A stretch of 32,000 nucleotides of DNA from Phycisphaera mikurensis NBRC 102666 (GTDB lineage Bacteria; Planctomycetota; Phycisphaerae; Phycisphaerales; Phycisphaeraceae), in NCBI RefSeq assembly GCF_000284115.1, contig NC_017080.1, positions 3,480,001-3,512,000 of the forward strand. Direction: 5' to 3'. The notes under the pieces were generated by a model, which was not told where the DNA came from, searched no databases, and saw only the letters and a list, made by a program, of their open reading frames with translations. Both the position numbers and the translations under genes were made by a program. This document shows, piece after piece, positions 3,237 to 31,938 of the stretch. How positions within the stretch are numbered: position 1 is the stretch's first letter; every line of letters starts with the position of its first letter.

Positions 3237-3282
3237 CCGCGGACCCGCGTCCGGTTCGTCGATCCCGACGAGCGATCCGCGG
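3237..3282. repeat. 46-bp palindromic element, copy D (variant right arm)
   Basis: ccgcggacc-cgcgtccggttcgtcgatcccgacgagc-gatccgcgg. The spacer is exactly 28 nt, with 7 perfect outer bp. It lies between the convergent rhaI and kinase genes. Confidence 0.55.
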
Positions 3283-3290
3283 CGGCGTGC

Positions 3291-4436
3291 TCAGGCCGGG
3301 TCGGGCAGATCGGCAAGGAAGCGGGCGAGCTCGGGGAGGGCCGGGCTGCGGGCCTCGCGGACGTAGAAGCCCGACGTGCCGGTGCCGCAGGCGAGGCAGC
3401 CGGCCGCGTCGAGGCCCGCGAGCAGGCCCAGCGTGAAGCCGGCGTTGAAGTTGTCGCCGGCACCGGTGGAGAGCCTCGGCTCCTGGATGTACGGCCCCCG
3501 GAAGTGGGCGGCGTCGAGCCCGCTCCCGCCGTGGATCGAGGCCGCCGCGCCCTCGCGGGGGTGCACGACCACGCCGTGCAGGCCCAGCTCCGCGCGAATC
3601 CTTTCCGCGGTGGCGATGAGACCGTCGGCGTCGGTCGCTCCCGCCGCCTCGCCGATGCCCAGCACGCCCATCGTCTGGCCGGCCTCGGAAAGATTCAGCC
3701 CGAGCACGACGCGGGCTTTGCTCTCGAAGGTCGACAGCAGCCGGCACACACCCGCCAGGTCATCGTCCTCACGCTTCGCCGGGTCGGCGAAGTCGACGAA
3801 GAGGTAGGGCCGCTCGGCCTCGCTCCTCTCGGGGATCATCTCCACGAGCATCCGGTAGACCGATTCGCACTTGGGCAGCATCGTCCAGTTGGTGAAGCCG
3901 AAGGCTCTGGACCGCACCACCAGCTCGCGGAGGTCGTCCTCGGGGATTGCTGCGCGGACCATGTCCGCGTCGAGATTCGCCACGTGGGCGTACTTCCCGA
4001 GCATCAGCTTGCCGTTGCCGAACTCCACCGCGTCGGTGAAGCCCGGGTCGCAAACCGGGAACGCCTCCACCCGGCGGGCAAACTCCGCGAAGATGCCGTG
4101 AACGTTGGGCCGGCCCAGGGCGCCGATGTAGGCCACCCGCAGCGTCGCCTCGAGCATGGCGTTGGCCATGATCGGGCCGTTGCCGCCGAGCTTCTCCTGG
4201 TTCACGACGAACTCGAAGTTCGCCGACTTCCCATCCGCCGCGAGGATGCGCTCGCCGAAGGCCCTGATCGTGGGCATCGGCGTGAAGCTGTCCACGTCGG
4301 ACCGCTTCTGGACCACGCGGATGATGCTGTCGACGAAGCCGTCGAAGCCGATCAGGACGGGGGTCTGGGGGGCCTTCGTCGCGAACGCGCGGAGGGCGGC
4401 GGCGGCGGCGGTGGCGGTCTGTTGGCGATCGGGCAT
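3291..4436 (-). CDS. Ribokinase/PfkB-superfamily sugar or sugar-phosphate kinase, substrate unknown
   Basis: ORF 3291..4478. ATG at 4436 (MPDRQQTATAAA) is preferred over 4478. The C-terminal TGAGDNFNAGF motif is typical of the ribokinase superfamily. N-terminal VLIGFDGFVDSI and LGGNGPIMANAM resemble the ADP-PFK/GK-like branch, but this is resemblance only. Confidence 0.8.
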   Translation of the reverse strand: MPDRQQTATAAAAALRAFATKAPQTPVLIGFDGFVDSIIRVVQKRSDVDSFTPMPTIRAFGERILAADGKSANFEFVVNQEKLGGNGPIMANAMLEATLRVAYIGALGRPNVHGIFAEFARRVEAFPVCDPGFTDAVEFGNGKLMLGKYAHVANLDADMVRAAIPEDDLRELVVRSRAFGFTNWTMLPKCESVYRMLVEMIPERSEAERPYLFVDFADPAKREDDDLAGVCRLLSTFESKARVVLGLNLSEAGQTMGVLGIGEAAGATDADGLIATAERIRAELGLHGVVVHPREGAAASIHGGSGLDAAHFRGPYIQEPRLSTGAGDNFNAGFTLGLLAGLDAAGCLACGTGTSGFYVREARSPALPELARFLADLPDPA

Positions 4437-4667
4437 TTCGATTCGATGTCCTTCACCGTGTCGGGAACCGACGAGCAAGAAACGAGGGGGTGAGTCCTAG
4501 GGAAGCACTCGGCCCCCGGAGTACTCGGAGCGTGGCATCACGCTTCCAATGATCGATCACGCCGCTGAAGGCAAAGGCGCCCGAGGACGGCAGCCCTTCC
4601 CCAGGACGTGCCCCCAAACCCCCCGGACCCCCGAGTCCCTCCGCGCTGCCCGAAGCGTCCGGCACAC

Positions 4668-5702
4668 TCAGCTGCTCTTCAACGAACGACCTTCGGCCTT
4701 CAGATCCCGACAAGCCTCCTTGACCCGCTCCGCCATGGAAGTCTCGCCCGCCTTCAGGTACACCCGCGGGTCGTACATCTTCTTGTTGCCGACCTCGCCG
4801 TCGATCTTCAGCACCCCGCTGTAGTTCTTGATGATGTGGTCGGCCACGCCGCGCGTGAAGGCGTATTGGCAGTCGGTGTCGACGTTCATCTTCACGACGC
4901 CGTAGCCGAGGGTCTCGTCGATCTCGTGCTTTTCCGAACCCGAGCCGCCGTGGAAGACCAGGTAGAAGCTGGCGTCGTCGCCGAACTTCTTCTTGATGGC
5001 GTCCTGGCCTTCCTTGAGCAGCCCGGGCTTCAACTTCACGGCCCCGGGCTTGTAAGCGCCGTGGACGTTGCCGAAGGTCGCGGCGAACATGTACGTGCCG
5101 TCCACGCCCTTCATCCGCTCGTAAACGCGGACCATGTCCTCGGGCGTCGTGTAGAGGTGCTCCTCGGGCGTGTCGTCGCTGCCGGCGGCGCCGTCCTCCT
5201 CGCCGCCGACGACGCCGGCCTCGATCTCGATGACCTGGCCAATCTTGGCCATCCGCTCGTAGATCGGCACGGACAGGTCCAGATTCTCCTCCAGCGGGAG
5301 GCCCGACGCGTCGAGCATGTGCGACTGGAACAGGGGGAGCTTGCCCTCGCTCACACGCCGCTCGGACTCCTCGATCAGCGGGATCAGGAAGTCGTCGACG
5401 TTGCCGGGCGGGCAGTGGTCGGTGTGCATCGCCACGTTGACGTCCAGCTTGGCGGCCACGCGGTGGACGTGCTCGGCGATGGAGATCGCCCCCGTGACCA
5501 TGTCGCCACAGACCTGCCCCGCCGCGAACTTGCCGCCGCCGGTGGAGACCTGGAGGATGCCGTCGCTGCCGAGCTCCTGGAACGCCTTGAGCGCCGCGTT
5601 GGCGGTGACCATCGAGGTCACGTTGATCGCGGGGTAGGCGAAGCCGTGCTCGAAGGCGTTCTCGAGCATCTGGACGTAGGTCTTCGGGTCGGCGATGGGC
5701 AA
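4668..5702 (-). CDS. fba: Class II fructose-1,6-bisphosphate aldolase
   Basis: ORF 4668..5771. PIADPKTYVQMLENAFEHGFAYPAINVTS..SDGILQVSTGG..HTDHC..FHGGSG..MNVDTD is collinear with class IIa FbaA (M. tuberculosis Fba starts MPIATPEVY). The likely start is therefore TTG at 5702, since the upstream ATG at 5771 would add 23 atypical residues. The exact start is uncertain. Confidence 0.9.
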   Translation of the reverse strand: MPIADPKTYVQMLENAFEHGFAYPAINVTSMVTANAALKAFQELGSDGILQVSTGGGKFAAGQVCGDMVTGAISIAEHVHRVAAKLDVNVAMHTDHCPPGNVDDFLIPLIEESERRVSEGKLPLFQSHMLDASGLPLEENLDLSVPIYERMAKIGQVIEIEAGVVGGEEDGAAGSDDTPEEHLYTTPEDMVRVYERMKGVDGTYMFAATFGNVHGAYKPGAVKLKPGLLKEGQDAIKKKFGDDASFYLVFHGGSGSEKHEIDETLGYGVVKMNVDTDCQYAFTRGVADHIIKNYSGVLKIDGEVGNKKMYDPRVYLKAGETSMAERVKEACRDLKAEGRSLKSS

Positions 5703-5892
5703 GGTGTTGGGATCTTTGGGTGGGAGGAAACGGGCTGGCGGGCGGCGACTATACAGGTGCCCACCCCGCATCGACGCACCGGCGGCCTGCGCCCGCCGCC
5801 GGTGGCCGCGGGCTGGAGGCTCCCCGGGATCGCGTCACCGCCGGGATGCTCGGACGCGACGCCGTTGGGACGACACGCGTTGAGGCGCCCGC

Positions 5893-6984
5893 TCAGCCGG
5901 CGGATGCCGCCGGAGCGGAACCCGATCGGCGATCCGCGTGTCGCGACGTCAGCGCCAGCACCCGACCCGCCACCGCCTCCGCGTTCAAGCCGATGCGCTC
6001 AAAGACTCCGCGGGTGTTCGCGTGCAGGCGCTGCTTGCCCTGGCGGATCCGCCGCGCTACCGCGTCCACCAGCCGGAGGTACACCCGCAGCGACAGCCCC
6101 GCCATCACCGTCCCCGCCGACGCCGCCCGCACCGCGTCGCCATCTGCAAGCGGCCGCTGCCCGCGGCGTCGCTGCGCCTCCGCCGACTCGTCCAGCGGCC
6201 GCAGCCACGCGCCGCACCTGCGCCGCTGCGGAAGCGGGCACCGCGGACCGACGGCCTCCCGACGTCCGGGCGGCCCGCGGTCTGCGGGTCCATCGGGCTC
6301 GTTCTCCGCCGCTCGCTCCGCCGCCGGCACGTCCCGTCGCAGGCGCCCCGCCAGCGACGTGTACCGCCCCTCCTCCGGCGTGTCGCAGGCCCCCGCCGCG
6401 AACGGGTTCAGGTCCACGTAGACCATGGTCGCCACCAGCTGCTCTTCGTCCTCGATGCGCTTGCACTTGTAGACGCCTTCCCAGAACGAGCCTCCCACGC
6501 CCTCGAGCTTGTTCCCCTCTTGGGCCACGTGCTGCTTGAGGTCCTTCATGAACTGCGGCAGGCTCACCAGCTTCTTCCGCGTCGCCTCCACCGCGTCCGC
6601 GTCCGCCGCCATCTCCGCGATCGCCTCCTCGGAAGTCTCCACCGCCTCCCTCGCCCGGTTCCGCTTGGGGTGGATCCGCAGCCACCGACGCACCACTTCC
6701 TCCGCCGACCACGCCTCGGCGCCTCTCGGATCCGTCCGGAGGATCAGGTGCACGTGGTTGTTCATCAGCGAGAACCCCAGCACCTCCACCGTCGTCGCCT
6801 CGGTCAACCGATCCAGCTGCGCCATCACCAGTTGCTTGCGGAGATCAGCGGGCTCTGCGGGCGGATCGGGTGTCTTGCCGCCGCGTCCCGGCACGAGAAG
6901 GTGCAGCGACCGCGAGCAGCGTGAAGTGACGTGGTAGATCGCCGGACGCGACTCCACGAGAACATGCGAGCGAATCTGACGCAT
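5893..6984 (-). CDS. REP-associated tyrosine transposase-like protein (IS200/IS605 TnpA Y1, HUH family) with long C-terminal extension
   Basis: ORF 5893..7041. ATG at 6984 is preceded by GAGGAGG 6 nt upstream. It has the N-terminal YHVTSRC motif, the HUH motif NHVHLIL, and a catalytic-Tyr region VYVDLNPFAAG. The C-terminal LSLRVYLRLVDAVARRIRQGKQR..VFERIGLNAE resembles the tail of long RAYT-like proteins of Planctomycetes and Verrucomicrobia (from memory). No IS200-type TnpB partner is present. Confidence 0.75.
   Translation of the reverse strand: MRQIRSHVLVESRPAIYHVTSRCSRSLHLLVPGRGGKTPDPPAEPADLRKQLVMAQLDRLTEATTVEVLGFSLMNNHVHLILRTDPRGAEAWSAEEVVRRWLRIHPKRNRAREAVETSEEAIAEMAADADAVEATRKKLVSLPQFMKDLKQHVAQEGNKLEGVGGSFWEGVYKCKRIEDEEQLVATMVYVDLNPFAAGACDTPEEGRYTSLAGRLRRDVPAAERAAENEPDGPADRGPPGRREAVGPRCPLPQRRRCGAWLRPLDESAEAQRRRGQRPLADGDAVRAASAGTVMAGLSLRVYLRLVDAVARRIRQGKQRLHANTRGVFERIGLNAEAVAGRVLALTSRHADRRSGSAPAASAG
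6241..6287. repeat. Possible degenerate copy H of the palindromic element
   Basis: ccgcggacc-N29-ggtctgcgg. It has one arm mismatch and a 29-nt spacer. It lies inside the low-complexity linker of the RAYT-like ORF, translated as PADRGPPGRREAVGPR. Confidence 0.35.
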
Positions 6985-7052
6985 CAAGAGCCTCCTCAGC
7001 ATCGAAACAAAACCATCAACGCCAGCACCGGCCAGCTCCACCCACCCACCTC

Positions 7053-7197
7053 GACACCCTAGCGTCTCTCGTTGTGGGTGTCACCCCATGCAAAAGCTTC
7101 CGCATCGAGATCTGTGGCAGTGTCCCTCTATCTCTTGCGACGGGTGTCTCACGATGGGGCTTTGCAGCGGGGGCTTTGCCGTGGGTGTCACCCCATG
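7053..7197. repeat. Repeat-rich lower-GC spacer upstream of the RAYT-like gene
   Basis: A 17-bp direct repeat gtgggtgtcaccccatg occurs at 7074-7090 and 7181-7197. The GGGTGTC motif also occurs at 7142-7148, and inverted (gacaccc) at 7053-7059. A 10-bp direct repeat ggggctttgc occurs at 7156-7165 and 7170-7179. The palindrome ccccatgtatgggg is at 7191-7204. Confidence 0.7.
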
Positions 7198-7320
7198 TAT
7201 GGGGCATGCGGAGTGGCTGATCCGCGGAGGCCGGATGCAGCCGCCGGGCCTCGCCGAGGTTGACGCCTCGAGGGCGGACGGCCGCTTACACGCCGCCTCC
7301 CCCCGACGAGTGAGGCGGAG

Positions 7321-7538
7321 GTGCCGGAGGGCTTCGCCGCCGCGTGGGAGGGCTGCCCAGCCGCGAAGGACTTCTTCAAGTCGCTGGCCGAGTCGAGCCG
7401 TTACGCCATCACCTACGGGCTGACGACCGCGAGGAACCCGAAACCCGGCAGCGCCGCTTCGGGAAGTTCCTGGGCATGCTCCAGCGCCAGAAGAAGCCGG
7501 GCTTCGGGTTCAAGGAGAAGACGCGAAAGGGCCGCTGA
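7321..7538 (+). pseudogene. YdeI/OmpD-associated (OmdA) domain fragment, frameshifted and lacking an N-terminal domain
   Basis: The frame of 7321 reads VPEGFAAAWEGCPAAKDFFKSLAESSRYAITYGLTTARN. The frame of 7344 continues PETRQRRFGKFLGMLQRQKKPGFGF*. Joined, these match the family pattern ..FxxLSxSxRYAIxYxLxTAKKPETRxRRIxxFVxML.. A 1-nt deletion near 7435-7437 explains the split. The open frame only begins at 7264. Confidence 0.5.
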
Positions 7539-7584
7539 AGGCGCGAGGTTGGAGGCGCGGACGGATGCTCGCCACAATGTCGGC

Positions 7585-8835
7585 ATGAACCACGCCCACC
7601 GCTCCATCACCCTGCCCGGCGGCTTCCGCGCCGCGGGCGTCGCCTGCGGGATCAAGGAGTCGGGGAAGCCGGACCTCATGCTGCTGGTGAGCGACGTGCC
7701 TTGCACGGCGGCGGGCACGTTCACGCGAAACGCGATCGTGGGCGCGGCGGTGGTGGTCGGGCGGCGGAACCTCGTCGACCGCGGGGGCAAGGGCTTCCGC
7801 GCGGCCGTGTGCAACAGCGGCAACGCCAATGTGATGCGGATCGGTCCCGACGGGCTCGCCGACGCGGAAGCGATGTGCCGGGCGGCGGCGGAGGCGGCGG
7901 GCTGCGAGGCCTCGGCGGTGCTGCCGGCGTCGACGGGGATCATCGGGCGGAAGCTGCCGATGGAGAAGGTTCTCGCGGGCGTGGCCGACGCGGCGGGCCG
8001 CTTGGAAGCGGGAGCGGCCGCGGACCGGGCGGCGGCGGACGCGATCCTGACGACGGACCTCACCCCGAAGACGGCGGTCCGCGGGGTCACGCTCCCGGCA
8101 AGCGGGACGCGCGTCACCCTCGGCGGGATCGCCAAGGGCAGCGGGATGATCGCGCCGGCGATGAGCCCCCCCACCGCGACGATGCTGGCGTTTCTCACGA
8201 CCGACGCGGCGGTGGACCCCGGCGTCCTCCAGGCGCTGCTGACGCGGGCGACGGCGACGAGCTTCAATCGGATCAGCGTCGACTCGGACACGTCCACCAG
8301 CGACACCGCGTACCTGCTGGCGTCGGGGGCGGCGGGCAACCCGGTGATCGACGACGCGGGATCCGAGGACGCGCTCGCTCTCGCGGAGGCGCTCGGCGAG
8401 GTCTGCGGCGAGCTGGCGGAGGCCATCGTCCGCGACGGCGAGGGGATGACCAAGCTCCTCCGCGTGGCGGTCCGCGGGGCCGCGAGCGAGGAAGACGCCG
8501 ACCGCGTGGGCCGGGCGATCTGCGACTCGCCGCTGGTGAAGTGCGCGGTCCACGGGGGCGATCCCAACTGGGGGCGCTTCGTGATGGCCATCGGCAAGAG
8601 CGGGGCCGCCGTGGACGGGACGCGGCTGCGGGTGACGCTCGGCGGGCACGCGGTGTTCACCGACGGCGTCCCGATCGACATGAACGACGACGCGGAGGAG
8701 AAGCTGACGGCCGCGCTCCGCGGCGACGAAGTCCGCGTCGGCGTCGACCTGCGGGCCGGTGACGCGTCGGCCGACTGGCTCGGTTGCGACCTCTCCCGCG
8801 CGTACATCGCCATCAACGCGGACTACCGGACCTGA
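7585..8835 (+). CDS. argJ: Bifunctional glutamate N-acetyltransferase/amino-acid acetyltransferase (ornithine acetyltransferase)
   Basis: ORF 7321..8835. ATG at 7585 gives MNHAHRSITLPGGFRAAGVACGIKESGKPDLML. The autoproteolytic site PTATMLAFLTTDA is present, along with SVDSDTSTSD, DGEG and DPNWGR, and the C-terminal INADYRT. Confidence 0.93.
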   Translation: MNHAHRSITLPGGFRAAGVACGIKESGKPDLMLLVSDVPCTAAGTFTRNAIVGAAVVVGRRNLVDRGGKGFRAAVCNSGNANVMRIGPDGLADAEAMCRAAAEAAGCEASAVLPASTGIIGRKLPMEKVLAGVADAAGRLEAGAAADRAAADAILTTDLTPKTAVRGVTLPASGTRVTLGGIAKGSGMIAPAMSPPTATMLAFLTTDAAVDPGVLQALLTRATATSFNRISVDSDTSTSDTAYLLASGAAGNPVIDDAGSEDALALAEALGEVCGELAEAIVRDGEGMTKLLRVAVRGAASEEDADRVGRAICDSPLVKCAVHGGDPNWGRFVMAIGKSGAAVDGTRLRVTLGGHAVFTDGVPIDMNDDAEEKLTAALRGDEVRVGVDLRAGDASADWLGCDLSRAYIAINADYRT

Positions 8836-8998
8836 CGCCGCGGGGCCTGGCGTCCCGCGCGATCGAGCCGGGCCCCGCGCGGCGGACACGGGGCAAGGCG
8901 GAGCCACAGCGAAGCGCCGACGCCCGGGAGGCCCTCGCCGCGGGAGCGCCCGCCCGCCCCCGCGTGCGGACGCGAGGTCTTCACCCAGCGCAACCCCG

Positions 8999-9024
8999 CC
9001 GCGGACCGCCGGCCGTTTCGGGCT

Positions 9025-9044
<20 letters not shown>
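8999..9044. repeat. 46-bp palindromic element, copy A
   Basis: ccgcggacc-gccggccgtttcgggcttcagggctcgt-ggtccgcgg, with a 28-nt spacer. It lies between the convergent argJ and the exported hypothetical gene. The stop codon of the latter (9025-9027) falls in the loop. Confidence 0.7.
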
Positions 9045-9987
<943 letters not shown>

Positions 9988-10059
9988 CGCAGAGGCTCCG
10001 GGGCTCCCATCCGGCGCTTGAACCTAGGTAGCATCCCCGCGTCGCTCCTACCTTCGCGG

Positions 10060-11016
10060 ATGCTCCCCTTCCGAACCCGGCTGCGCCCGCTCGCCACCGC
10101 CGCGTTGGTGCTGCTGCTCGCGCCGCTGGCGACCGCCCAGCGAGCCCTCCCCGGGGCGCCCACCGACGGCGACGACGACCCCACCGCCATCCCCGCCCCG
10201 CTGCGGGGCGTGGACGTCGGGCAACGCATCGGCAACGCCGTCCCGCTCGACGCCCCGCTGCTCGACGAGAGCGGGAACACGGTCCGCCTGCGCGACTACC
10301 TCGCCGACGGCGAGGGCAACCCGGTGCCGGTGCTCCTGAACCTGGGGTACTACGACTGCCCGCTGCTGTGCGTGCCGGTGCGGACCGGCATCGCCGACGC
10401 CGCCCGGCAGGCCGCGGCGGTGCCGGGTCGGGACTACCGGATCGTGTCGATCTCGATCAAGCCCGAGGAGTCACCGGACGTGGCGAACCTCTACAAGACG
10501 CGGGCCCTCAAGCGGATGAACCGCCTCGACACCACCGACGCCTCGTGGGCCTTCCTGACCGGGCCGGAGTCGTCCGTGCGGCCGATCGCCGACGCGGTCG
10601 GGTTCGGCTACCGGTACCTGCCGGCCCAGGACGACTACGCCCACGGCGCCTACATCACGTTCCTCTCGCCCGGCGAGGGCGACGAGACCACGCCGGGCAC
10701 CGTCACCAGCTACCTCAACGGCGTCAAGTACCCGCCCCAGCAGCTCGATCTCGCCATCGGCGACGCCTCCGCCGGCAGCCTCGGCTCGCCCTTCGCGGGG
10801 CTGATCGCGTGGTGCTACCAGTTCAGCGGGGCCCACGGGCAGTACGTGATCGTCGCCAAGCGGGTGATGGCGCTCGCTGGGCTGGTGATCCTCGTCGTGC
10901 TGGTCGTCGTCCTCGGCCTCCTGTTCAAGTGGGAGCGAGCCCGCCACGCCCGGCTCCGGGCGGGCGGGGCCGGCGGGGGCGAAGCCGACGACGCGGGAGC
11001 GCCCGCCGCGGGCTGA
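10060..11016 (+). CDS. SCO1/SenC-family copper chaperone/thiol-disulfide protein with C-terminal membrane anchor
   Basis: This is the tail of ORF 9034..11016. ATG at 10060 gives MLPFRTRLRPLATAALVLLLAPLATAQ (signal). The CxxxC motif YYDCPLLCVPV is present, and the C-terminal TM segment is VMALAGLVILVVLVVVLGLLF. It lies immediately upstream of the cox genes. Confidence 0.85.
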   Translation: MLPFRTRLRPLATAALVLLLAPLATAQRALPGAPTDGDDDPTAIPAPLRGVDVGQRIGNAVPLDAPLLDESGNTVRLRDYLADGEGNPVPVLLNLGYYDCPLLCVPVRTGIADAARQAAAVPGRDYRIVSISIKPEESPDVANLYKTRALKRMNRLDTTDASWAFLTGPESSVRPIADAVGFGYRYLPAQDDYAHGAYITFLSPGEGDETTPGTVTSYLNGVKYPPQQLDLAIGDASAGSLGSPFAGLIAWCYQFSGAHGQYVIVAKRVMALAGLVILVVLVVVLGLLFKWERARHARLRAGGAGGGEADDAGAPAAG

Positions 11017-11046
11017 GGCCGGGGACCGCCCCGCGGCCGCCCCGGC

Positions 11047-11053
11047 TAGACTC
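11047..11053 (+). promoter_or_regulatory. TAGACTC motif upstream of coxB
   Basis: ggcTAGACTCgatcc directly follows a 7-bp GC hairpin (11018-11024 with 11040-11046) after the sco stop, 106 nt before the coxB ATG. Confidence 0.25.
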
Positions 11054-11158
11054 GATCCGGCCCGCTGCTCCACCCGATGACGGGTGCGCCGGGCCCTCCC
11101 ACCGCTCCCCGCGAGGCCCGCCGCACCCGCGCCCCGCCGTTCCCGAAGCCGCTTCGCC

Positions 11159-12634: not shown

Positions 12635-12680
12635 CCGCGGACCGCCGGCTAAAATCGTCCGAAACAGTCACGGTCCGCGG
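12635..12680. repeat. 46-bp palindromic element, copy B
   Basis: ccgcggacc-gccggctaaaatcgtccgaaacagtcac-ggtccgcgg. The perfect stem extends to 13 bp (12632-12644 with 12671-12683). It lies in the coxB-coxA spacer. Confidence 0.75.
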
Positions 12681-12682
12681 AT

Positions 12683-17554: not shown

Positions 17555-19051
17555 TCACCAGCCGCCGCCGAGGGCGGCGTAGAGGTCGATGAGGCGGAGG
17601 AGCGTCTCGCGCTCGGCGTTGACCTTCAGGCGCTGGATGCCCAGGCGGGTGGTCACGGCTTCGGTCACCGAGAGGAAGTCCGAGGCGCCGGCGGTGTAGC
17701 GGTCGCGGGCGAGCGTTTCGGTGTCCACCGCGGCGGCGGCGGCGGCGGCCAGGCGCCGGACCCGCTCGGCGCCGCGGAAGCGGCGGACGGCGGCGGTCTC
17801 CACCTCGCGCTGCGCTTCGACAACCGCCCGCTCGAACAGGGCGAGCGACTCGCGGCGGCGGGCGTCGGCTCGGACGACGTTGGCGCGGATGCGGCCGCCT
17901 TGGAACAGCGGGAGCGAGACCGATGGCCCCAGCTGCAGGACGCGCGCGTCCCAGTCGGTGGCGTCGCCGACCTGCGGGCCCTGCAGGCGCAGCGATCCGC
18001 TGAGCGTGACACGGGGGAAACGCTCGGCCTCCGCGGCGCCGACGCGCGCCGTGGCGGCGGCGAGGGCCGCGGCGGCCCGGCGGACCTCCGGCCGGCGGAG
18101 CAGGAGGTCCGCCGGCACGCCGGCGGCGGGGAGCGGGCCGTCCAGGACCAGCGCCGCGGCACGCGAGCCGGGCGCCGCCGCGGGACCGGCGCCGCGGGGC
18201 TCGATGACGACCGAGCCGGGGGCGAGGCCCAGCAGCGCGTCGAGTTGGAGCAGCGCCGAGGCCCGCTCCGCGTGCAGGCCGGGCAGCACCGCGAGGTCCT
18301 GCGCGAGAACGCGCTGGGCGCGGGCGGCGTCGAGCGCGTCGCTGAAGCCGGCGGCCTGCCGGGCCTCGGCGATCGAGAGCACGTCGCGGTCGGCGTCGAG
18401 CCCGCGGCGGACCGTTTCGATCTCGGCGTCCAGGGCGCGGACGGTGACGACCTGCCGGGCGACCGAGGCGGCGAGGCTGACGCGGACGGCGCGGAAGTCC
18501 TCCACGGCGAAGGCGATCTCGGCGTCGGCGGCCTCGACGAGGCGGCCCACGCGGCCCCAGAGGTCCAGCTCCCAGCCGGCGACGACGCCCAGCGCGTACA
18601 GCTCGGTCTCGACGCCGGGCGGCGCCCCGTTGAAGGACAGCGCCTCCTCGCCGGTGGCGAGGTAGCCGTAGCTGCCCTCGGCGGTGAGCTGCGGCAGGCG
18701 GTCGGCGTCGACGACGCCGCGGCGGGCCCGGGCGGCGACGATCCGCTCACGGGCGGCGGCGAGATCGAGGCTGCCGACGAGCGCCCGCCGCACCAGCCGC
18801 GTCATCACCGGGTCGTCGAAGCCCTCCCACCAGGCGGAGAGGCCGGCTTCGGCGGGCACGGGCGTCGCCGGCTCCGTGTGGCGGTACCGTTCGTTCAGCC
18901 GGTGATCGAGGTCGGCCTCGGTGGCGTCGGGCCCGACGCGGCAGCCGGCGAGGGCGATCGAAGCCGCGAACGCCGCCGCCAGCCGCGGACCGCGGCCGAT
19001 CCCGGTGCGGAGACCCGACGGTCCGCGGCGCGGGGGGAGCGGGCGCTTCAC
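17555..19051 (-). CDS. Efflux outer membrane factor lipoprotein, NodT family
   Basis: A 498-aa ORF with GTG start at 19051 overlapping the MFP stop. The lipobox is SIALAGC. The conserved OMF motifs WW.GF.DP and LLLRRPEVRRA are present, with two TolC-like repeats. Its 5' end contains palindromic element copy G. Confidence 0.9.
   Translation of the reverse strand: MKRPLPPRRGPSGLRTGIGRGPRLAAAFAASIALAGCRVGPDATEADLDHRLNERYRHTEPATPVPAEAGLSAWWEGFDDPVMTRLVRRALVGSLDLAAARERIVAARARRGVVDADRLPQLTAEGSYGYLATGEEALSFNGAPPGVETELYALGVVAGWELDLWGRVGRLVEAADAEIAFAVEDFRAVRVSLAASVARQVVTVRALDAEIETVRRGLDADRDVLSIAEARQAAGFSDALDAARAQRVLAQDLAVLPGLHAERASALLQLDALLGLAPGSVVIEPRGAGPAAAPGSRAAALVLDGPLPAAGVPADLLLRRPEVRRAAAALAAATARVGAAEAERFPRVTLSGSLRLQGPQVGDATDWDARVLQLGPSVSLPLFQGGRIRANVVRADARRRESLALFERAVVEAQREVETAAVRRFRGAERVRRLAAAAAAAVDTETLARDRYTAGASDFLSVTEAVTTRLGIQRLKVNAERETLLRLIDLYAALGGGW
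18983..19028. repeat. 46-bp palindromic element, copy G
   Basis: ccgcggacc-gcggccgatcccggtgcggagacccgac-ggtccgcgg, with an 11-bp stem. It lies at the MFP/OMF junction, inside the first 25 codons of the OMF ORF. Confidence 0.7.
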
Positions 19052-20209: not shown

Positions 20210-21046
20210 TCAGCGGTTCTGGTCGTTGCCCGCGCAAGATCCGCGGACCGCGTCGGTTTCGGGGGCTTCTTCGCGGCGGTCCGCGGGCCGGCCTCCGTTG
20301 CGCTCCTCACGCCGCCGGCCCGCCTGCTCGCGCCGGTCCTCCACCTCCTCGATCTCGCCGTCGGCCATGTGGTGGATGACGTCGGCGTGGTCGAAGATGC
20401 GGTCGTCGTGCGTGACGATGATCACGGAGCGGTCGCCCTCCACCGCGAGATCCGAGAGCAGCGCCATAACGTTCGAGCCCGACGCCGCGTCGAGCGAGGC
20501 CGTCGGCTCGTCGCAGATCAGGACGCTGGGTTCGTGGACCAACGCCCGCGCGATCGCCACCCGCTGCTGCTGCCCGCCGGAGAGCTGGGCGGGCATCTTG
20601 TCGGCGTGGTCCCCGAGGCCGAGCTCGGCCAGCAGCTGCCGCGCGTGCTCCTCCGCGTCGCCCGTGGACTCGCCGCGGGCCACCCGCGGGATGGCCGCGT
20701 TCTCGGCGGCGGTCAGCGCCGGCAGCAGGTTGAACTGCTGGAAGACGAAGCCGAAGTGCCGCAGCCGGAAGTCGGCGAGCTTCGGCCGCGAGAGCACCCG
20801 GAGGTCGGTGCCCAGGACCGAGACCTCGCCGTCGTCGGCGGAGAGGATCGCGCCGATCACCGAGATCAGCGTCGTCTTGCCGCAGCCCGAGGGCCCCACC
20901 AGGTACGTCATCTCCCCGGCGTGCGCGTCGAAGCTCGCGCCGCGGAGCACGCGGACCTTCGCGTTGCCCTCGCCGAAGCTCTTCTCGACGCCGGAGCAGG
21001 CGACCAGCACCGCGTCGGGCCGGGGCTCGGGGGCGGTGTCAACCAA
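20210..21046 (-). CDS. ABC transporter ATP-binding protein (MacB/LolD/DevA-like)
   Basis: ORF 20210..21103. TTG at 21046 is preceded by GGAGGTG 6 nt upstream. Walker A is GPSGCGKTT, the signature is LSGGQQQRVAIARAL, and Walker B is VLICDEPT. A ~45-aa charged C-terminal tail is read through palindromic element copy E. Confidence 0.92.
   Translation of the reverse strand: MVDTAPEPRPDAVLVACSGVEKSFGEGNAKVRVLRGASFDAHAGEMTYLVGPSGCGKTTLISVIGAILSADDGEVSVLGTDLRVLSRPKLADFRLRHFGFVFQQFNLLPALTAAENAAIPRVARGESTGDAEEHARQLLAELGLGDHADKMPAQLSGGQQQRVAIARALVHEPSVLICDEPTASLDAASGSNVMALLSDLAVEGDRSVIIVTHDDRIFDHADVIHHMADGEIEEVEDRREQAGRRREERNGGRPADRREEAPETDAVRGSCAGNDQNR
20241..20286. repeat. 46-bp palindromic element, copy E
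   Basis: ccgcggacc-gcgtcggtttcgggggcttcttcgcggc-ggtccgcgg, with an 11-bp stem. It lies between the ATPase core and the MFP start and is read through as the ATPase tail. Confidence 0.7.
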
Positions 21047-21048
21047 TC

Positions 21049-23004: not shown

Positions 23005-23008
23005 GGGG

Positions 23009-23041: not shown

Positions 23042-23087
23042 GTAGCCGCCCCGGCGGCGGCGTCAAGCCCGCGGTACGCTTCGGCGG

Positions 23088-24593: not shown

Positions 24594-24626
24594 GACCCGC
24601 TGCGAGCGGGCTGCGCCGAGTCGCCT

Positions 24627-24884
24627 TCAAACCGAGGCGTCGCCCTCGGCCGACGGCGGGGTGGCCTGGTTGGCGGCGGCGGCCTGGGCACGGGCGATGT
24701 TCTGCTTGACCAGCTCGTCGGCCCAGATGTGGTGCGCGACGCTCATCATCGCGGGGTGGCTGCCGCCGGCCTCGTTGTACGCGCGGCGGATCTCCTTGAG
24801 CTTGTCGGCGTGCTCGCCGTCGGGCGGCTGGGCTTCGGCGATGAACTGCTGGCGGACGAGATTGATGGCTTCTTGGAGCTGCAT
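24627..24884 (-). CDS. Small hypothetical protein (85 aa)
   Basis: This is the tail of ORF 24627..25619. ATG at 24884 gives MQLQEAINLVRQQFIAEAQPPDGEHADKLKEIRRAYNEAGGSHPAMMSVAHHIWADELVKQNIARAQ. Third codon positions are almost all G/C. No family was recognised. Confidence 0.55.
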   Translation of the reverse strand: MQLQEAINLVRQQFIAEAQPPDGEHADKLKEIRRAYNEAGGSHPAMMSVAHHIWADELVKQNIARAQAAAANQATPPSAEGDASV

Positions 24885-25037
24885 GATGGCTTTCTCGGGG
24901 GGTGCAAGGGGAGCGTCGGCACACGCGGGCGCGGCGGCGCCGGGCGGCGAGGGTACCGGCCCCGGCGGACCCGGCCGCGCCTCCGCAGCGACTGGGCGCT
25001 CGGGCGCCCGGGCGCGGCCGGGCTCTACCTTGCGTGC

Positions 25038-25083
25038 CCGCGGACCGCGGGCGTTTTGACGGCTCCTCCCCCACGATCCGCGG
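25038..25083. repeat. 46-bp palindromic element, copy F (variant right arm)
   Basis: ccgcggacc-gcgggcgttttgacggctcctcccccac-gatccgcgg, with a 28-nt spacer. Its left end forms the local palindrome cccgcggaccgcggg. It lies in the divergent region between the small hypothetical gene and cca. Confidence 0.55.
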
Positions 25084-26366: not shown

Positions 26367-26384
26367 CGCCGATAACCTCCGCCC

Positions 26385-27173: not shown

Positions 27174-27303
27174 ACGCGGGCGGCTCCGCGGCGCAGCCGG
27201 GCCGCAGGGCCCGACCGCCCGGGGGCGCAGACCGGGGCCCGCGGCTCTTCAGCCGTAAGCCGCGGAAGCCGATGGACGCGTGACCGCGCCCCGAGCCCCC
27301 CCC

Positions 27304-27711
27304 ATGCCCGCCGATCCCGATCACGCCGCCGACCCGCTCGCCTTCTCCGAAACCGCCCGCGGGCCCGACCGCCGCGTCAACGTCCTCGACGTCCGCGGCA
27401 CCGGGCTGGAGCGACGACGCGGGCCGGGCCGGCGGCGGTCGGACTTCGCCAAGGCCGCCGAGGAGGGCGAGATGACGCCCGAGCAGTTCCTCATGGTCAA
27501 GGCGATCGACGCGTTCAAGCGCGTGAACGACCGCCCCTTCCCCAGCTGGTGCGAGGTGCTCGAGGTGATGCGGAAGCTCGGCTACCGCAAGACGATGCCC
27601 AGCGAGCTCACGATCAAGGGCGCGCAGGACTGGTCCGAAGCCCCCGACGCCGCGGCCTTCGGCTTCAGCGACGCGGAGGAGGAAACCGAAGCCGACCTCG
27701 AAGCGGCCTGA
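27304..27711 (+). CDS. Hypothetical protein (Arg-rich N-terminus, helical C-terminal domain)
   Basis: ORF 27280..27711 with ATG at 27304. GC3 is high. The core reads GEMTPEQFLMVKAIDAFKRVNDRPFPSWCEVLEVMRKLGYRK and looks like a folded domain. No family was recognised. Confidence 0.6.
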   Translation: MPADPDHAADPLAFSETARGPDRRVNVLDVRGTGLERRRGPGRRRSDFAKAAEEGEMTPEQFLMVKAIDAFKRVNDRPFPSWCEVLEVMRKLGYRKTMPSELTIKGAQDWSEAPDAAAFGFSDAEEETEADLEAA

Positions 27712-27721
27712 ACACGCGGCG

Positions 27722-27767
27722 CCGCGGACCGCGGCCGTCGCGGGTCCAAGAGCCTGGCGGTCCGCGG
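27722..27767. repeat. 46-bp palindromic element, copy C
   Basis: ccgcggacc-gcggccgtcgcgggtccaagagcctggc-ggtccgcgg, with a 12-bp stem (27721-27732 with 27757-27768). It lies between the convergent hypothetical gene and the response regulator. Confidence 0.72.
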
Positions 27768-27786
27768 CTCGCTTGGCTCACACGGC

Positions 27787-28389
27787 TCACATCCCGACGG
27801 CGCTGGCCATCCGCACGAGGGCGGCGAACGACTCCGCGCGCATCTTCACCATCACCCGCGAGCGGTGGGCCTCCACGGTTTTGGGCGAGAGGTCCCGCTC
27901 GGCGGCGATCTCGCGGTTGGACTGCCCCCCGACGACCGCCCGCATCACGTCGAGCTCGCGCGGCGAGAGCGTGGCCAGCCGGGCCTGCACCGCCAGGCGC
28001 GACGGCCGCAGGCGGTCCGCGGAGGCCCCCGGCTTGAACATCTCCTGCACCGCCTCGAGCACGGCGTCGTCGCCGTAGGGCTTCTGAAGGAAGTCGGTGC
28101 AACCCGCTTTGATCGCGCGGACCGCCGTGGGCACGTCGCCGTGGCCGGTCACGATCAGCGTCGGGAGGCTCCGCCCACGCCGCCGCAGCTCATCGAGCAG
28201 GTCCAGGCCCGACTGCCCGGGCATCGCGAGATCGGTGATGACGCAGGCTTCGGTCGCGGCCGCCTCGGAGCCTTCCAGCCGCTCCAGCAGCTCCTCGGCC
28301 GAGGCGTTCCGGCTGGTGCTGAACCCGTCGGCCTCGAGCAGGAAGCACAGCGAGTCGAGCACGGCGGGATCGTCGTCGACGACGTGCAC
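27787..28389 (-). CDS. Response regulator, FixJ/NarL (LuxR-type HTH) family
   Basis: ORF 27787..28629. GTG at 28389 gives MHVVDDDPAVLDSL. The receiver domain has DLAMPG and the output is LSPRELDVMRAVVGGQSNREIAAERDLSPKTVEAHRSRVMVKM. The 80-aa upstream extension has non-coding character. Confidence 0.88.
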   Translation of the reverse strand: MHVVDDDPAVLDSLCFLLEADGFSTSRNASAEELLERLEGSEAAATEACVITDLAMPGQSGLDLLDELRRRGRSLPTLIVTGHGDVPTAVRAIKAGCTDFLQKPYGDDAVLEAVQEMFKPGASADRLRPSRLAVQARLATLSPRELDVMRAVVGGQSNREIAAERDLSPKTVEAHRSRVMVKMRAESFAALVRMASAVGM

Positions 28390-28600
28390 GCGGCCGGGCC
28401 CGGACGGAAGCGGTTTGTCCGCAAATCGAGAAGGGTGCTGCACCCGATGCCTCCGGAAGGAGTGATGCGCGATCCCGGAACCCCGGATCGTCGGCCCGAT
28501 GTTAACAGGTCGTTGCTTATGCACACCGTGGGGTGGGACAAGCCCCCACCCCACCGCCCGCTGCCCGCCGCGGCCGCCCGGGGAAGCGGCACGGCCCCGG

Positions 28601-30094
28601 TCAGCGGTTTTCGTTCCGGGCCGCGGCACGGGGCAGCGTCCTCGGGAGGGTCACCTCCATCGTGAGCCCGTCGCCGGCGTCCGCCGGGATCGCCCGGAGC
28701 GTCCCGCCGTGCGCCCGGACGATGGAGCGGCTGAGGACCAGGCCCAGGCCCAGCCCGTCGCGCCGGGTGGTGTGGAACGCCTCGAACAGGCGGGCCCGCT
28801 CGTCGTCGCTGAGGCGGGGGCCGGTGTCGGTGATCCGGATGCGGATCTCGCCGCCGGATCCGTCGGCCGCGACGCTCACGCGCCGCGCTTTGCTCTGCGA
28901 CGCGGCGTGGATGCCGTTGCTGAGCAGGTTGCGGAGCACCTGCCGCAGGAGCACGCCGTCTCCCTGGAAGCGGATGGCCGCGGGTGCGGGCCGGGCCCGC
29001 AACCCGACCCCCGCCGCCTCCGCCGCCGGTTTCGCCACCGCGAGGGCGTCCCGCACCAGGTCGGGGAGGTGGAGCGGGTCCTGCCGCGGGGCCCGACGCT
29101 GCAGGAAGGAGCGGACGCGGTCGACGATCGATTGTGCCCGCTGCGCCTCGTCGTGGATCCGCTGCGACGCGAACGCCAGCTCCTCGGGCCCCGTGTCCCC
29201 GCGGGCGGCCCGGCGGGCCAGCCCCGCCGCGTAGTTGGTGAGCGCCGCCAGCGGCTGGTTGAGCTCGTGCGCCAGCACCGTCGCCAGCTCGGACATGCTC
29301 AACCGCCGCAGCGTGCTCGCGTCCGCCGCCCGCAGCTCCCCCGCGTCCCGCTCGGCCTCGACGCGGCGCGAGACGTCCCGGTAGACGACGACGATGTCGC
29401 GGCCGGCCGCCCGCGTCCACCGGCTCATGGCTTCCACCTGCCGGTAGCCGCCCGCGGCGTGCCGCATGCGGAAGCGCCGGGAGACCACCCGGTCCGCCTC
29501 GGCGAGCAGCTCGGGCCTGGCGCTGATGACGTCGTCCACGTCGTCGGGGTGGACGAACTCCCGCGGCAGGCGGCCCACCAGCGCCTCGGGCTCGTGGCCG
29601 AGCACGACGCGGACCGCCGGGGACACGTACGTGAAGCGACCGTCTAGGGAATGCCGCGCGATCACGTCGGACGCCTGCTCGGCGAGCAGCCGGAAGCGCT
29701 CCTCCGAGGCCGCCCGCTCCAGCGTGCGGGCGCGGGCGGCGCGGGCGGTCGCGCCGTCGAAGGCGTGGTGACCGGCGGCCACGGCGGCGACGGCCGCCGC
29801 GAGGGCGTCGCAGGCGCCGTGGCCGCCGAGGCGGATCCACCCGCCGTCGTACGGCGCCGCGGCACACCCGGCCGGCGGATCCTCCCCCGCGAGGCGGGCG
29901 CCGCCGGGACCCGCCGCGGCCGCCTCCAGCTCGGCCTCGGGCCCGGAGCGTCCATGCGCGATGGCGATCGAGGCGGCCAGCCCCTCCGCCACCACCGCAT
30001 CCGCCAGCCGCTGCGGCCAGCCCTCGCCGCAGCCCGCGGCCCGAACGGCGGCGGCGAAGGCGGTCAGCGGGTTCGGGGGAGCATCATCAACCAT
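28601..30094 (-). CDS. Soluble PAS-domain sensor histidine kinase (FixL-like HisKA/HATPase_c)
   Basis: This is the lower part of the 833-aa ORF 28601..31102. ATG at 30094 is preceded by AGGAG. It has a PAS domain (FRLLAEQASDVIARHSLDGRFTYVSP), the H-box LAHELNQPLAAL, the N-box LLSNGIHA, and the G-boxes DTGPRL and GLGLGL. No TM segments are evident. Confidence 0.88.
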   Translation of the reverse strand: MVDDAPPNPLTAFAAAVRAAGCGEGWPQRLADAVVAEGLAASIAIAHGRSGPEAELEAAAAGPGGARLAGEDPPAGCAAAPYDGGWIRLGGHGACDALAAAVAAVAAGHHAFDGATARAARARTLERAASEERFRLLAEQASDVIARHSLDGRFTYVSPAVRVVLGHEPEALVGRLPREFVHPDDVDDVISARPELLAEADRVVSRRFRMRHAAGGYRQVEAMSRWTRAAGRDIVVVYRDVSRRVEAERDAGELRAADASTLRRLSMSELATVLAHELNQPLAALTNYAAGLARRAARGDTGPEELAFASQRIHDEAQRAQSIVDRVRSFLQRRAPRQDPLHLPDLVRDALAVAKPAAEAAGVGLRARPAPAAIRFQGDGVLLRQVLRNLLSNGIHAASQSKARRVSVAADGSGGEIRIRITDTGPRLSDDERARLFEAFHTTRRDGLGLGLVLSRSIVRAHGGTLRAIPADAGDGLTMEVTLPRTLPRAAARNENR

Positions 30095-30110
30095 CCGGAA
30101 TCTCCTGAGG

Positions 30111-30160
30111 GTAGAGGACGGCCGAACCTCCGCCGGGGCGGAACGCGCCGGGTCCTCTAC
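30111..30160. promoter_or_regulatory. Inverted repeat GTAGAGGAC-N32-GTCCTCTAC in the divergent kinase/MBL-hydrolase promoter region
   Basis: This is a 9-bp perfect inverted repeat (30111-30119 with 30152-30160) that nearly fills the 78-bp intergenic gap. Its arms are lower in GC than the surroundings. Confidence 0.3.
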
Positions 30161-30172
30161 GATCGCGGCCGC

Positions 30173-31114
30173 ATGCCGCAGGCACCCCCCGACAGCCAGG
30201 ACGCCTCCCTGCCGGCCGAGCCGGCCCGCCGCCCGCAGCTCGGCTTCGTCTACACGCCGCCGTTCCGCGTGCAGGGCCTCTCGATCGCGGGCGAGGAGAG
30301 CGTCGTCGCCGTGCCCGAGCTGGACGTCTGCTTCGACATCGGCTCGTGCCCCAAGGCCGTGCTGCCCAGCCCCTTCGTCGCGCTGACGCACGGCCACATG
30401 GACCACGTCGCGGGCATCGCGTACTACTTCAGCCAGCGCCCGTTCCAGGGGATGTCCGCCGGGACCGTCGTCTGCCCGCCCAGCCTGCGCGACGGCCTCG
30501 ACGGCCTGATGAAGGCTTGGCAGAAGATCGAGCGGCAGAAGACGCCCTACACGCTCACGCCGCTCGCCGACGGCGAGATGCTCGAGATCAAGAACAACCA
30601 CTTCCTGCGGCCCTTCCGCACCGTGCACACCGTGCCCAGCTCCGGTTACAGCGTGCTGGAGAAGCGGACCAAGCTCAAGCCCAAGCTCGTCGGGATGCCG
30701 CAGGAGGAGATCGTCCGGCGGAAGAACGCCGGCGAGGCGATCGTCGACACCCGCTTCGTCCCGCTGGTCTCCTACACCGGCGACACCGGCTGGGGCGACC
30801 ACCTGCTCATCCCCGAGGTCCTGGAGTGCCGCGTGCTCATCACCGAGTGCACCTTCATGGAACGGGGCCACCGGCGGCGGGCCGGCGTGGGCAAGCACCT
30901 GCACCTGGACCACATCGTCGAACTGGTCGAGCAGGTCGGCGACGAGACGGACGTGATCCTCACGCACCTTTCCCGCCGGACGCACATGAACGATGCGCGG
31001 AAGGCGCTCGCCGGGGCCATCCCCGCCGACAAGCTCGACCGGGTCCACCTGCTGATGGACAGCCGCACCAACCGCGAGCGCTTCGCGCAGCAGCAGGCCC
31101 AAGCGGTGGCCTGA
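30173..31114 (+). CDS. MBL-fold metallo-hydrolase (RNase Z-like)
   Basis: This is the tail of ORF 29651..31114, with ATG at 30173. The HxHxDH motif is LTHGHMDHVAG, with later His/Asp ligands (HTVPS, TGDTG, THLS). The size, 313 aa, is like short tRNase Z. The substrate is unknown. Confidence 0.8.
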   Translation: MPQAPPDSQDASLPAEPARRPQLGFVYTPPFRVQGLSIAGEESVVAVPELDVCFDIGSCPKAVLPSPFVALTHGHMDHVAGIAYYFSQRPFQGMSAGTVVCPPSLRDGLDGLMKAWQKIERQKTPYTLTPLADGEMLEIKNNHFLRPFRTVHTVPSSGYSVLEKRTKLKPKLVGMPQEEIVRRKNAGEAIVDTRFVPLVSYTGDTGWGDHLLIPEVLECRVLITECTFMERGHRRRAGVGKHLHLDHIVELVEQVGDETDVILTHLSRRTHMNDARKALAGAIPADKLDRVHLLMDSRTNRERFAQQQAQAVA

Positions 31115-31116
31115 GC

Positions 31117-31938
31117 GTGGGTGCGGTTGCCGTCGCCTTCGCCGGGAAAGCCAACCGCCCCGCCGCCGAAGCCCTGGCCGCGAGGCTGGGCCTCCCGATC
31201 GCCAAGAAGTTCCGCGATCCGCACCCGCTGCACCTGGCGTACGGGCCCGACGGCCGCCTGGGCCTCCGCGTCGTCGCCGCCGGCCACCCGCTCGCCGGCG
31301 GCCACCCCGTCGCCGCCGACCTGCTCGCGGTCGACACCTCCAGCCCCGCCGGCCGCAAGCTCGCCACGCCCTTCTTCAAGGCCATGGGCGTGCGGCGCGG
31401 CGAGCCGGCGCGCCCCCGGGTCCTCGACGCGACCGCCGGCCTCGGCGAGGACGCCTGGCTGCTCGCCAGCGCCGGCTGCCGCGTGACCGCTCTGGAGCGG
31501 AACCCCGTCGTCCTCGCCCTGCTCCAAGACGCCCTGGCCCGCGCCGCGGACCGCGAGCCCGAAACGGCCGAACGCCTCACGGTCCGCGGCGCCGAGGCCC
31601 TCGACGCGCTTCTGGCCCTGGCCGCCGGCCCCGAGGCGGACCGACCCGACGTCGTTGCGCTGGATCCCATGTTCCCGCTCGGCCGCCGCGCCACCGAACG
31701 CAAGCCGATGCGGGTGCTCCGCATGCTCGAGGAGGCCGCCGCCGACCGGGCTGGCTCCGCCGACGACGAGCCCGCCCTGCTCGCCGCCGCCCGCGCCGCC
31801 GCCCGCCGCCGCGTCGCCGTCAAACGCCCCGGCAAGGCCCCTCCGCTCGCCGGGCAAGAGCCCGACGTCGTGTTCCCCGGCAGAGCCGTCCGCCACGACG
31901 TCTACCTCACGCCCGCGGAGACGCCGCGAGCCGGCTGA
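31117..31938 (+). CDS. rsmJ: 16S rRNA (guanine1516-N2)-methyltransferase RsmJ
   Basis: This is the tail of ORF 30346..31938. GTG at 31117 lies 2 nt after the preceding stop. VLDATAGLGEDAWLLASAGCRVTALERNPVV, LDPMFP and RVAVKRPGKAPPL are collinear with E. coli RsmJ (YhiQ) as recalled. It contains palindromic element copy I. Confidence 0.88.
   Translation: MGAVAVAFAGKANRPAAEALAARLGLPIAKKFRDPHPLHLAYGPDGRLGLRVVAAGHPLAGGHPVAADLLAVDTSSPAGRKLATPFFKAMGVRRGEPARPRVLDATAGLGEDAWLLASAGCRVTALERNPVVLALLQDALARAADREPETAERLTVRGAEALDALLALAAGPEADRPDVVALDPMFPLGRRATERKPMRVLRMLEEAAADRAGSADDEPALLAAARAAARRRVAVKRPGKAPPLAGQEPDVVFPGRAVRHDVYLTPAETPRAG
31544..31589. repeat. 46-bp palindromic element, copy I (inside rsmJ)
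   Basis: ccgcggacc-gcgagcccgaaacggccgaacgcctcac-ggtccgcgg, with a 13-bp perfect stem (31541-31553 with 31580-31592). It shares the 14-mer gcccgaaacggccg with the reverse complement of copy A. Confidence 0.65.

Follow-up and report, generated by a model that had tools for sequence, protein, structure and literature searches.

The 32,000-nucleotide stretch of Phycisphaera mikurensis NBRC 102666 analysed here (contig NC_017080.1, positions 3,480,001 to 3,512,000; hereafter the window) has a G+C content of ~72%, and the region is also present in assembly GCA_014207395.1. Among and within its genes, which include argJ, cox2, cox1, rsmJ and a Y1 transposase gene, lies a family of 46-bp palindromic elements, the copies of which are lettered A to I (Table 1). 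The pattern CCGCGGACC-N(15-45)-GRTCCGCGG matches the window eight times (at 3237, 8999, 12635, 18983, 20241, 25038, 27722 and 31544), and the spacer is exactly 28 nt in 8/8 matches although anything from 15 to 45 was permitted. In 100 dinucleotide-preserving shuffles of the window the expectation was 0.00. These are the same eight copies that an earlier note on this DNA had assigned a fixed 28-nt spacing, and the deviating right arm of copies D and F and the degenerate copy H, with its own arm and longer spacer, were also as it had described them.

The arms extend one base pair beyond the inverted 9-mers on which that description was based. Position 10/37 is G/C in 33/36 copies, hence the arms are 10 bp long (CCGCGGACCG and CGGTCCGCGG) and are separated by 26 bp, with roughly 24 constrained positions in the whole element. 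Other resemblances between copies hold: the 14-mer GCCCGAAACGGCCG is common to copies A and I on opposite strands, a 16-nt left end is common to copies C and G, and, once outward extension is counted, copies B, C, E, G and I have stems of 11-13 bp. Exact 9-mers reported as unpaired were located at all six positions (8018, 8076, 8469, 9279, 23371 and 28014), all within open reading frames (ORFs), but those at 8018 and 8076 form a perfect pair with each other across a 47-bp spacer. In 179 kb of clade DNA, comprising loci of P. mikurensis and of its relatives, no other perfect pair has a non-canonical spacing, and a rough estimate puts the chance expectation for such pairs at ~0.01; the pair is probably a variant member of the family.

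The fixed spacing persists beyond the window, an outcome on which the earlier note had made its reading depend. When pairs of 10-mer arms with spacers from 10 to 50 were counted in the 179 kb and graded by mismatches, a spacer of 26 gave 28 perfect, 7 one-mismatch and 6 two-mismatch pairs, a spacer of 27 gave 3 perfect and 4 one-mismatch pairs (seven copies one base longer), and the remaining 38 spacers were essentially empty. Perfect copies thus far outnumber singly mismatched ones (28 vs 7), and single arms outside pairs are not enriched in the same DNA (26 vs 17 expected). In 74 kb of P. mikurensis, copies occur about once per 4-5 kb, mostly between genes, which bears out the density of about one per 4 kb first suggested and extrapolates to ~780 copies per genome. 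Chance or base composition as the source of the family is ruled out by the shuffles, by Markov arm counts and by the spacer histogram. A restriction-site effect was also considered and rejected, as CCGCGG (SacII-type) and CGGWCCG (RsrII-type) sites outside the elements match Markov expectation, being neither avoided nor enriched.

Table 1. Copies of the 46-bp element and associated features; positions are those of the window unless a locus (L) of a relative is named
Feature	Position	Strand	Context and remarks
Copy D	3237..3282		Right arm GATCCGCGG; between convergent genes, a xylose-isomerase-like TIM-barrel gene (end 3200) and ketohexokinase (end 3291)
Y1 HUH (RAYT/TIRYT-like) transposase gene	5893..6984	-	363 aa; HVH and YVDLNP motifs; helical C-terminal domain
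Copy H	6241..6287		47-bp variant, 29 nt between 9-mers, arm GGTCTGCGG, one arm mismatch; in frame in linker of the Y1 transposase-like gene
Non-canonical pair	8018..8084		Inside argJ coding sequence; perfect 10-bp arms; 47-bp spacer = canonical 26 + 21 (two helical turns)
Copy A	8999..9044		Perfect 9-bp arms; 3' of argJ; overlaps 3' end of convergent hypothetical ORF
Copy B	12635..12680		cox2-cox1 spacer; palindrome continues outward to AAT...ATT
Copy G	18983..19028		In frame in signal-peptide n-region of outer-membrane efflux lipoprotein ORF; just 3' of stop codon of HlyD-like gene
Copy E	20241..20286		In frame (ADRREEAPETDAVRG) in non-conserved C-terminal tail of MacB-type ABC ATPase ORF
Copy F	25038..25083		Right arm GATCCGCGG; 5' end of CCA-adding/polyA polymerase gene, after co-directional gene
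Copy C	27722..27767		Centred in 75-bp gap between hypothetical gene (+) and LuxR-type response regulator gene (-)
Copy I	31544..31589		In frame (AADREPETAERLTVRG) in conserved Rossmann region of rsmJ
Mosaic clusters	L185 7619-7867, 10948-11195, 13842-14218; L124 14488-14635; L125 12578-12761		Beside small PIN and HNH gene cassettes

Copies were present in every other P. mikurensis locus fetched, L122 and L123 among them, which shows that the family extends beyond the window. Loci from related metagenome-assembled genomes (L124 to L127 and L185 from sample ERZ25039505, L128 from sample ERZ23498990) also contain many copies with identical arms, and the arms are the same in all fetched genomes that have the Y1 clade. 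Further afield the motif is rare or absent. A relative with a COX1 81% identical and a G+C content of 63% has no copy in 13.7 kb, and the viral contigs searched gave no match. A variable-gap scan of species-representative genomes returned, among the matches listed, 120 unrelated GC-rich genomes with one match each and a flat spacer distribution, 5/120 at N=28. Among 241 million metagenome records, the exact 20-base motif was found in just 53 stretches; some two thirds of these came from marine metagenome assemblies whose accessions belong to the ORX series, almost exclusively ORXU. The motif is restricted to P. mikurensis and close relatives and is lineage-specific. No description of it, or of Phycisphaera repeats, was found in the searchable literature, in which the family appears to be undescribed.

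Between the arms there is almost no sequence consensus across 84 distinct copies. The A/T fraction in these copies, however, is 0.47-0.65 at positions 17-20 and 27-30 vs 0.11-0.27 at neighbouring positions, and the two A/T patches are 10 bp apart and mirror-symmetric about the centre of the element. A/T is also elevated at positions 11/36 (0.53) and -2/+48, beside the invariant A7/T40, and A/T positions repeat every ~10-11 bp across five helical turns. Both patches lean to A or T in 61 copies: read along a single strand, they favour the same base in 32 of these and opposite bases in the other 29. Given this lack of strand preference, the signal is an A/T base pair at each position, not an A in one strand. 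Helically phased, strand-neutral patches point to recognition of duplex DNA, and of the readings that the earlier note had offered, two half-sites ~37 bp apart fits best. A strand-specific loop motif, read in RNA or in single-stranded DNA, was considered after an orientation-resolved position weight matrix hinted at GAAAC repeats, and was rejected when the strand-neutral analysis found A and T used equally. Single-strand folding gave only the outer stem in common (-12 to -20 kcal/mol): the spacers have no shared secondary structure, and the consensus fold consists of the outer stem alone.

In the window, copies D, A and C sit between convergent genes and copies E, G, H and I lie in frame within coding sequence. 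At the other loci copies are mostly intergenic and occur at every type of junction, including ~7 divergent promoter regions. Some copies, namely D, A and C in the window and several in relatives, follow the stop codons of convergent genes at a distance of between a few bases and some tens of bases. Together with the strong GC-rich stems, and with the fact that no Rfam family matches the element to provide a competing assignment, this placement would suit an RNA hairpin, either a U-tract-independent terminator or a barrier stabilizing mRNA 3' ends. However, about one quarter of copies are in divergent promoter regions and others are within coding sequence, and the A-rich strand has no consistent orientation with respect to transcription: where genes are co-directional, it is the sense strand about half of the time and the antisense strand in the other cases. 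A terminator would need neither identical arms over ~800 sites in several species nor a fixed 26-nt loop. The copies also differ from intrinsic terminators in having no U-tract, a point on which the earlier note is right for every copy except B, which is followed directly by ATTTTG. A role at the RNA level is very improbable, and the view that these are not simple terminators stands.

Copy F, which had been placed in a divergent promoter, in fact lies between two plus-strand genes, and a candidate TTG start codon falls inside an A/T patch. Copy C has no counterpart at the corresponding site in the relatives represented by L127 and L128. All seven longer-spacer copies are in coding DNA, which suggests that the additional base is a tolerated compromise with the reading frame.

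The origin of individual copies can be followed where they lie in conserved sequence. Solved RsmJ structures align through the peptide encoded by copy I without a gap, ten further RsmJ orthologues have the same length at this point, and the distant ones read AAEVEPEIAERIAVHR; the spacer of copy I is therefore ancestral coding sequence. It encodes the ancestral EPE.AER(L/I), and the arm codons, for AADR and VRG, are found in close relatives only. Across three species (with the orthologues in L127 and L128) all 20 arm bases are retained while the spacer drifts, the L127 and L128 spacers differing and having GAA, AAA, AGG and GGA at the A/T patches. An aldehyde dehydrogenase (ALDH) gene contains a 47-bp copy (L124 4570-4616, PRIEAALAAGAVAVRG), and this too aligns with solved ALDHs without a gap. 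In the spacers of eight coding copies, three of which are orthologues, A/T-ending codons make up 25%, compared with 7.4% over the remainder of these genes (Fisher p = 5e-6). The ungapped alignments and these rare codons together argue that the rsmJ and ALDH copies arose in place; as judged from the alignments, their origin is substitution, and neither is an insertion relative to its homologues. Copy B can be compared with the corresponding site of a relative with a COX1 92% identical (L183, ~2590-2640), where the spacer is kept (CCCGCTAAAATCGTCCGAAAC), the left arm matches at 9/10 positions and the right arm at 5/10, without an indel, so gain or loss at this intergenic site was also by substitution.

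Dispersed palindromes of this kind invite comparison with mobile repeats, and the earlier note had called the density of copies REP/BIME-like or like that of the RPE of Rickettsia. One possible link is the Y1 gene of the window, the 363-aa product of which is 100% identical to a P. mikurensis protein annotated 'transposase'. The protein has a weak Pfam Y1_Tnp match and matches the NCBIfam REP-associated tyrosine transposase profile NF047646 (E = 4.5e-9, 36 bits, below the cut-off of 80). Its structure is predicted with confidence (predicted local distance difference test, pLDDT, 82.8), and the closest solved structure is 4er8, in which E. coli TnpA-REP is in complex with a REP hairpin. The C-terminal domain has no Pfam or PDB sequence match, and Foldseek matched the HUH core only. 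P. mikurensis has at least four diverged Y1 paralogues. Of the seven Y1 genes examined, five contain a 47-bp copy, each at the same offset and reading ADR-x11-GPR in a hypervariable linker of fixed length, much as genes of RAYT subclass 2.4 carry in-frame REPs (PMC6006769).

It could be supposed, then, that the family is a REP/REPIN-type non-autonomous element, with resident RAYT- or TIRYT-like Y1 transposases recognizing a single-stranded hairpin and copying it around the genome, the arms being kept because the enzyme reads them. The Y1 protein itself (profile match, HVH and Y...NP motifs, TnpA-REP fold), its multiple paralogues and the internal copies in their genes favour this, as do the extragenic bias, the stable stems, weak covariation in the stem extension and mosaic clusters. 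Like the REP/BIME and REPIN-RAYT systems of E. coli and Pseudomonas, with their Y1 TnpA-REP, the family consists of short GC-rich palindromes in hundreds of mostly extragenic copies, and in one relative it is clustered with other palindromes, as in BIMEs: L185 has three repeats of a 190-300-bp mosaic in which the 46-mer is one of four or five different palindromic modules, and the spacers are related between the repeats. A second palindrome family, GGCAGGTC-NNN-GACCTGCC, has 12 copies in the ERZ25039505 genome and is absent from the P. mikurensis loci.

However, only the arms and their distance are conserved in the 46-bp family, the 26-bp spacer varying around its phased A/T patches. Apart from the three duplicated mosaic copies in L185, the copies are not related by descent over their full length, unlike recently copied elements, and at least two of them arose in place within conserved coding sequence. 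The A/T patches have no strand preference. No conserved unpaired tetranucleotide foot (GTAG, GTGG or CGTC) is present in the aligned copies, the arms of which pair from end to end. None of the seven Y1 genes is flanked by copies on both sides, as in a REPtron; the nearest outside copies are 0.1-2 kb off and on one side only. The copies internal to Y1 genes have the minority 27-bp spacer. Target-site duplication had been put forward as a test by the earlier note. The flanks show a weak rAT on both sides, with AT at the end of ~22% of them and examples of AAT...ATT as well as AAT...AAT, but no clear duplication; since AT is self-complementary, a duplication and an extension of the arms would give the same pattern. 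Mobility of the REP, BIME or RPE kind is thus not borne out by the rsmJ and ALDH copies, the largely unrelated spacers and the unflanked Y1 genes, and spread by a Y1 transposase is unlikely. The connection of the Y1 protein to the 46-bp family is suggestive but unproven.

By motifs, length and upstream GGGGTGAC repeats, the Y1 gene fits, as far as its sequence indicates, the TIRYT group, or TnpAY1 subclass 2.1 (PMC3733652, PMC6006769). Upstream of the gene, where the GC content is lower, the minus strand has the sequence GGGGTGACACCC twice (7076-7087 and 7183-7194, 107 nt apart); like the upstream motif GGGGTGAC, it agrees with GGGGWSAS, the motif reported for the inverted repeats that flank TIRYT genes (Di Nocera, 2013; PMC3733652). 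As in TIRtrons (Di Nocera, 2013; subclass 2.1 in Quentin, 2018), the protein is long, with NHVH and Y...NP motifs and a helical C-terminal extension, and the gene is multi-copy with diverged paralogues. The likeness concerns the gene, not the 46-bp family: no inverted GGGGTGAC partner was found downstream, GGGGTGACACCC has no inverted partner downstream of the Y1 gene and is missing from the rest of the fetched loci, and the terminal repeat of the gene is not the 46-bp element. The presence of a TIRYT motif upstream, in place of the 46-mer, is a further point against a REP-type relationship.

Other repeats accompany Y1 genes outside the window. In L122, tandem GGAAGCAAGGGG units and the hairpin GCAAGGGGTCAAGCCCCTTGC lie within ~400 nt upstream of 5262 and 10001, that is, of both nearly identical Y1 paralogues, and again within ~400 nt downstream of 11086, past the second paralogue (10001-11086). 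The arrangement is REPtron-like and is made from a palindrome other than the 46-mer. In L185, a G-rich tandem repeat resembling (GGGGGGCGAG)n at 9780-9939 is directly upstream of a Y1 homologue, and in L123 a ComEC-type competence gene (7093-9822; DUF4131, Competence and Lactamase_B domains) is directly upstream of a P. mikurensis Y1 paralogue.

In its evolution the motif resembles, as far as the analogy carries, DNA uptake signal sequences more than REPs. Uptake signal sequences are gap-free relative to homologues, have more perfect than mismatched copies, contain AT-rich segments about one helical turn apart and prefer non-coding DNA, with many coding copies (Redfield et al., 2006; PMC1626085). 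If a competence receptor favoured motif-bearing DNA, recombination would accumulate the motif, a specific form of maintenance by molecular drive. Substitutional origin, the excess of perfect copies, phased A/T segments, absence of an orientation bias and clade specificity all match this signature (PMC1626085, PMC2817400). A preference for non-coding DNA, the placement of coding copies at weakly conserved residues and the ComEC homologue in L123 agree with it as well. With the uptake signal sequences (USS) of Pasteurellaceae and the DNA uptake sequences (DUS) of Neisseriaceae, the family has in common an origin by point mutation, a majority of perfect copies, clade specificity, a presence in both coding and non-coding DNA and inverted pairs between genes, and with USS also a conserved core plus AT-rich segments.

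However, known uptake sequences are single cores of 9-12 bp, whereas the unit here consists of two inverted arms that must occur together at a set distance, with no enrichment of single arms, and in this it differs from every known uptake sequence. Its density is about fourfold below theirs (~1 per 4 kb vs ~1 per kb), and the host belongs to a phylum, Planctomycetota, from which neither competence nor a bias in DNA uptake is known to have been reported. Moreover, coding copies use rare codons, whereas the reading frames of known uptake sequences correlate with preferred codons (PMC2817400). Uptake through a competence receptor as the cause is quite unlikely. A wider version, which can be advanced only tentatively, is that the motif is non-mobile and drive-maintained, either as a 'self' DNA tag of the uptake-signal type, which would be the first outside Proteobacteria, or through an equivalent drive, and that it would be read as a bipartite palindrome by a putative dimeric receptor and overwrite codon usage in conserved genes.

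Two further comparisons are less close. HIP1 (GCGATCGC) of cyanobacteria is an over-represented palindrome that is found in coding and non-coding DNA and evolves in place, the cause being unresolved; it is a single 8-bp palindrome, unlike the 46-bp motif, without bipartite geometry or a phased spacer. The RPE of Rickettsia, the Correia elements of Neisseria and MITEs are, like the family described here, dispersed palindromic or inverted-repeat units, some of them in frame in genes. Unlike the gap-free copies with unrelated spacers seen here, however, they are insertions relative to homologues and have a conserved interior.

Obligate pairing at a fixed distance, phased strand-neutral A/T patches, the excess of perfect copies, clade restriction and substitutional origin against codon bias are best fitted by a site on duplex DNA for a dimeric, DNA-bending protein. 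The chances are about even that the 46-bp motif is such a predicted duplex binding site, kept by selection or by molecular drive. It would be a lineage-specific, dyad-symmetric DNA signal, with a spacer free in sequence except for its A/T patches. A putative dimeric sequence-specific protein may read the double-stranded DNA by gripping both arms, and the spacer may be bent or wrapped by the bound protein. At least some sites have been created by point substitution, even where the coding sequence is conserved and rare codons are the price, and a directional force on the DNA sequence would maintain them. This force could be selection for a role of the bound protein, such as chromosome or supercoil organization, or a molecular drive like that which builds up uptake signal sequences. 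The Y1 transposase encoded in the same genome, which has a helical C-terminal domain, is one candidate reader.

Several observations weigh against a duplex binding site maintained in this way. Holding ~800 sites perfect by selection alone would be costly. An origin in place is firmly established for two coding copies only, and intergenic DNA other than at copy B is unalignable between the available relatives. Beyond the arms, at positions 11-16 with 31-36, pairing is more frequent than random and there are 35 double changes vs 26.3 +/- 3.8, a value reached by 4/500 shuffles; this modest excess of compensatory changes would be compatible with a hairpin or a cruciform. In the most frequent arm variant, C8 to T, a G-T wobble is retained. 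Finally, the three clearly duplicated mosaic copies in L185 mean that some spread has been by duplication.

Two features of the window near argJ lie apart from these questions. Upstream of the gene, at 7434-7511, is an inverted repeat (GAACCCGAAACCCGGC / GCCGGGCTTCGGGTTC; 16 nt, 94% complementary, 46 nt between arms) unrelated to the 46-bp family. On its other side, ORFs overlap on both strands between 9025 and 11016 (9025-9987 on the minus strand and a longer one, 9034-11016, on the plus strand), with very high GC in two codon phases over ~9001-9900; it is the 3' end of the minus-strand ORF that copy A overlaps. The public annotation instead has two non-overlapping genes, 9025-9987(-) and 10060-11016(+). 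A significant Pfam match is lacking for both ORFs, and the gene calls there are therefore uncertain.

Dispersed bacterial repeats are usually attributed to transposition, as with REPs and MITEs, or, in two proteobacterial families only, to uptake-biased drive. A motif written into conserved genes against codon bias implies a strong sequence-specific force acting on several hundred sites per genome. The motif is a sharp sequence marker of its clade in metagenomes, and the identity of the reader protein would reveal a new chromosome-organizing system, a signal of a new kind for DNA uptake or self-recognition, or an unexpected activity of Y1 (RAYT/TIRYT) proteins.

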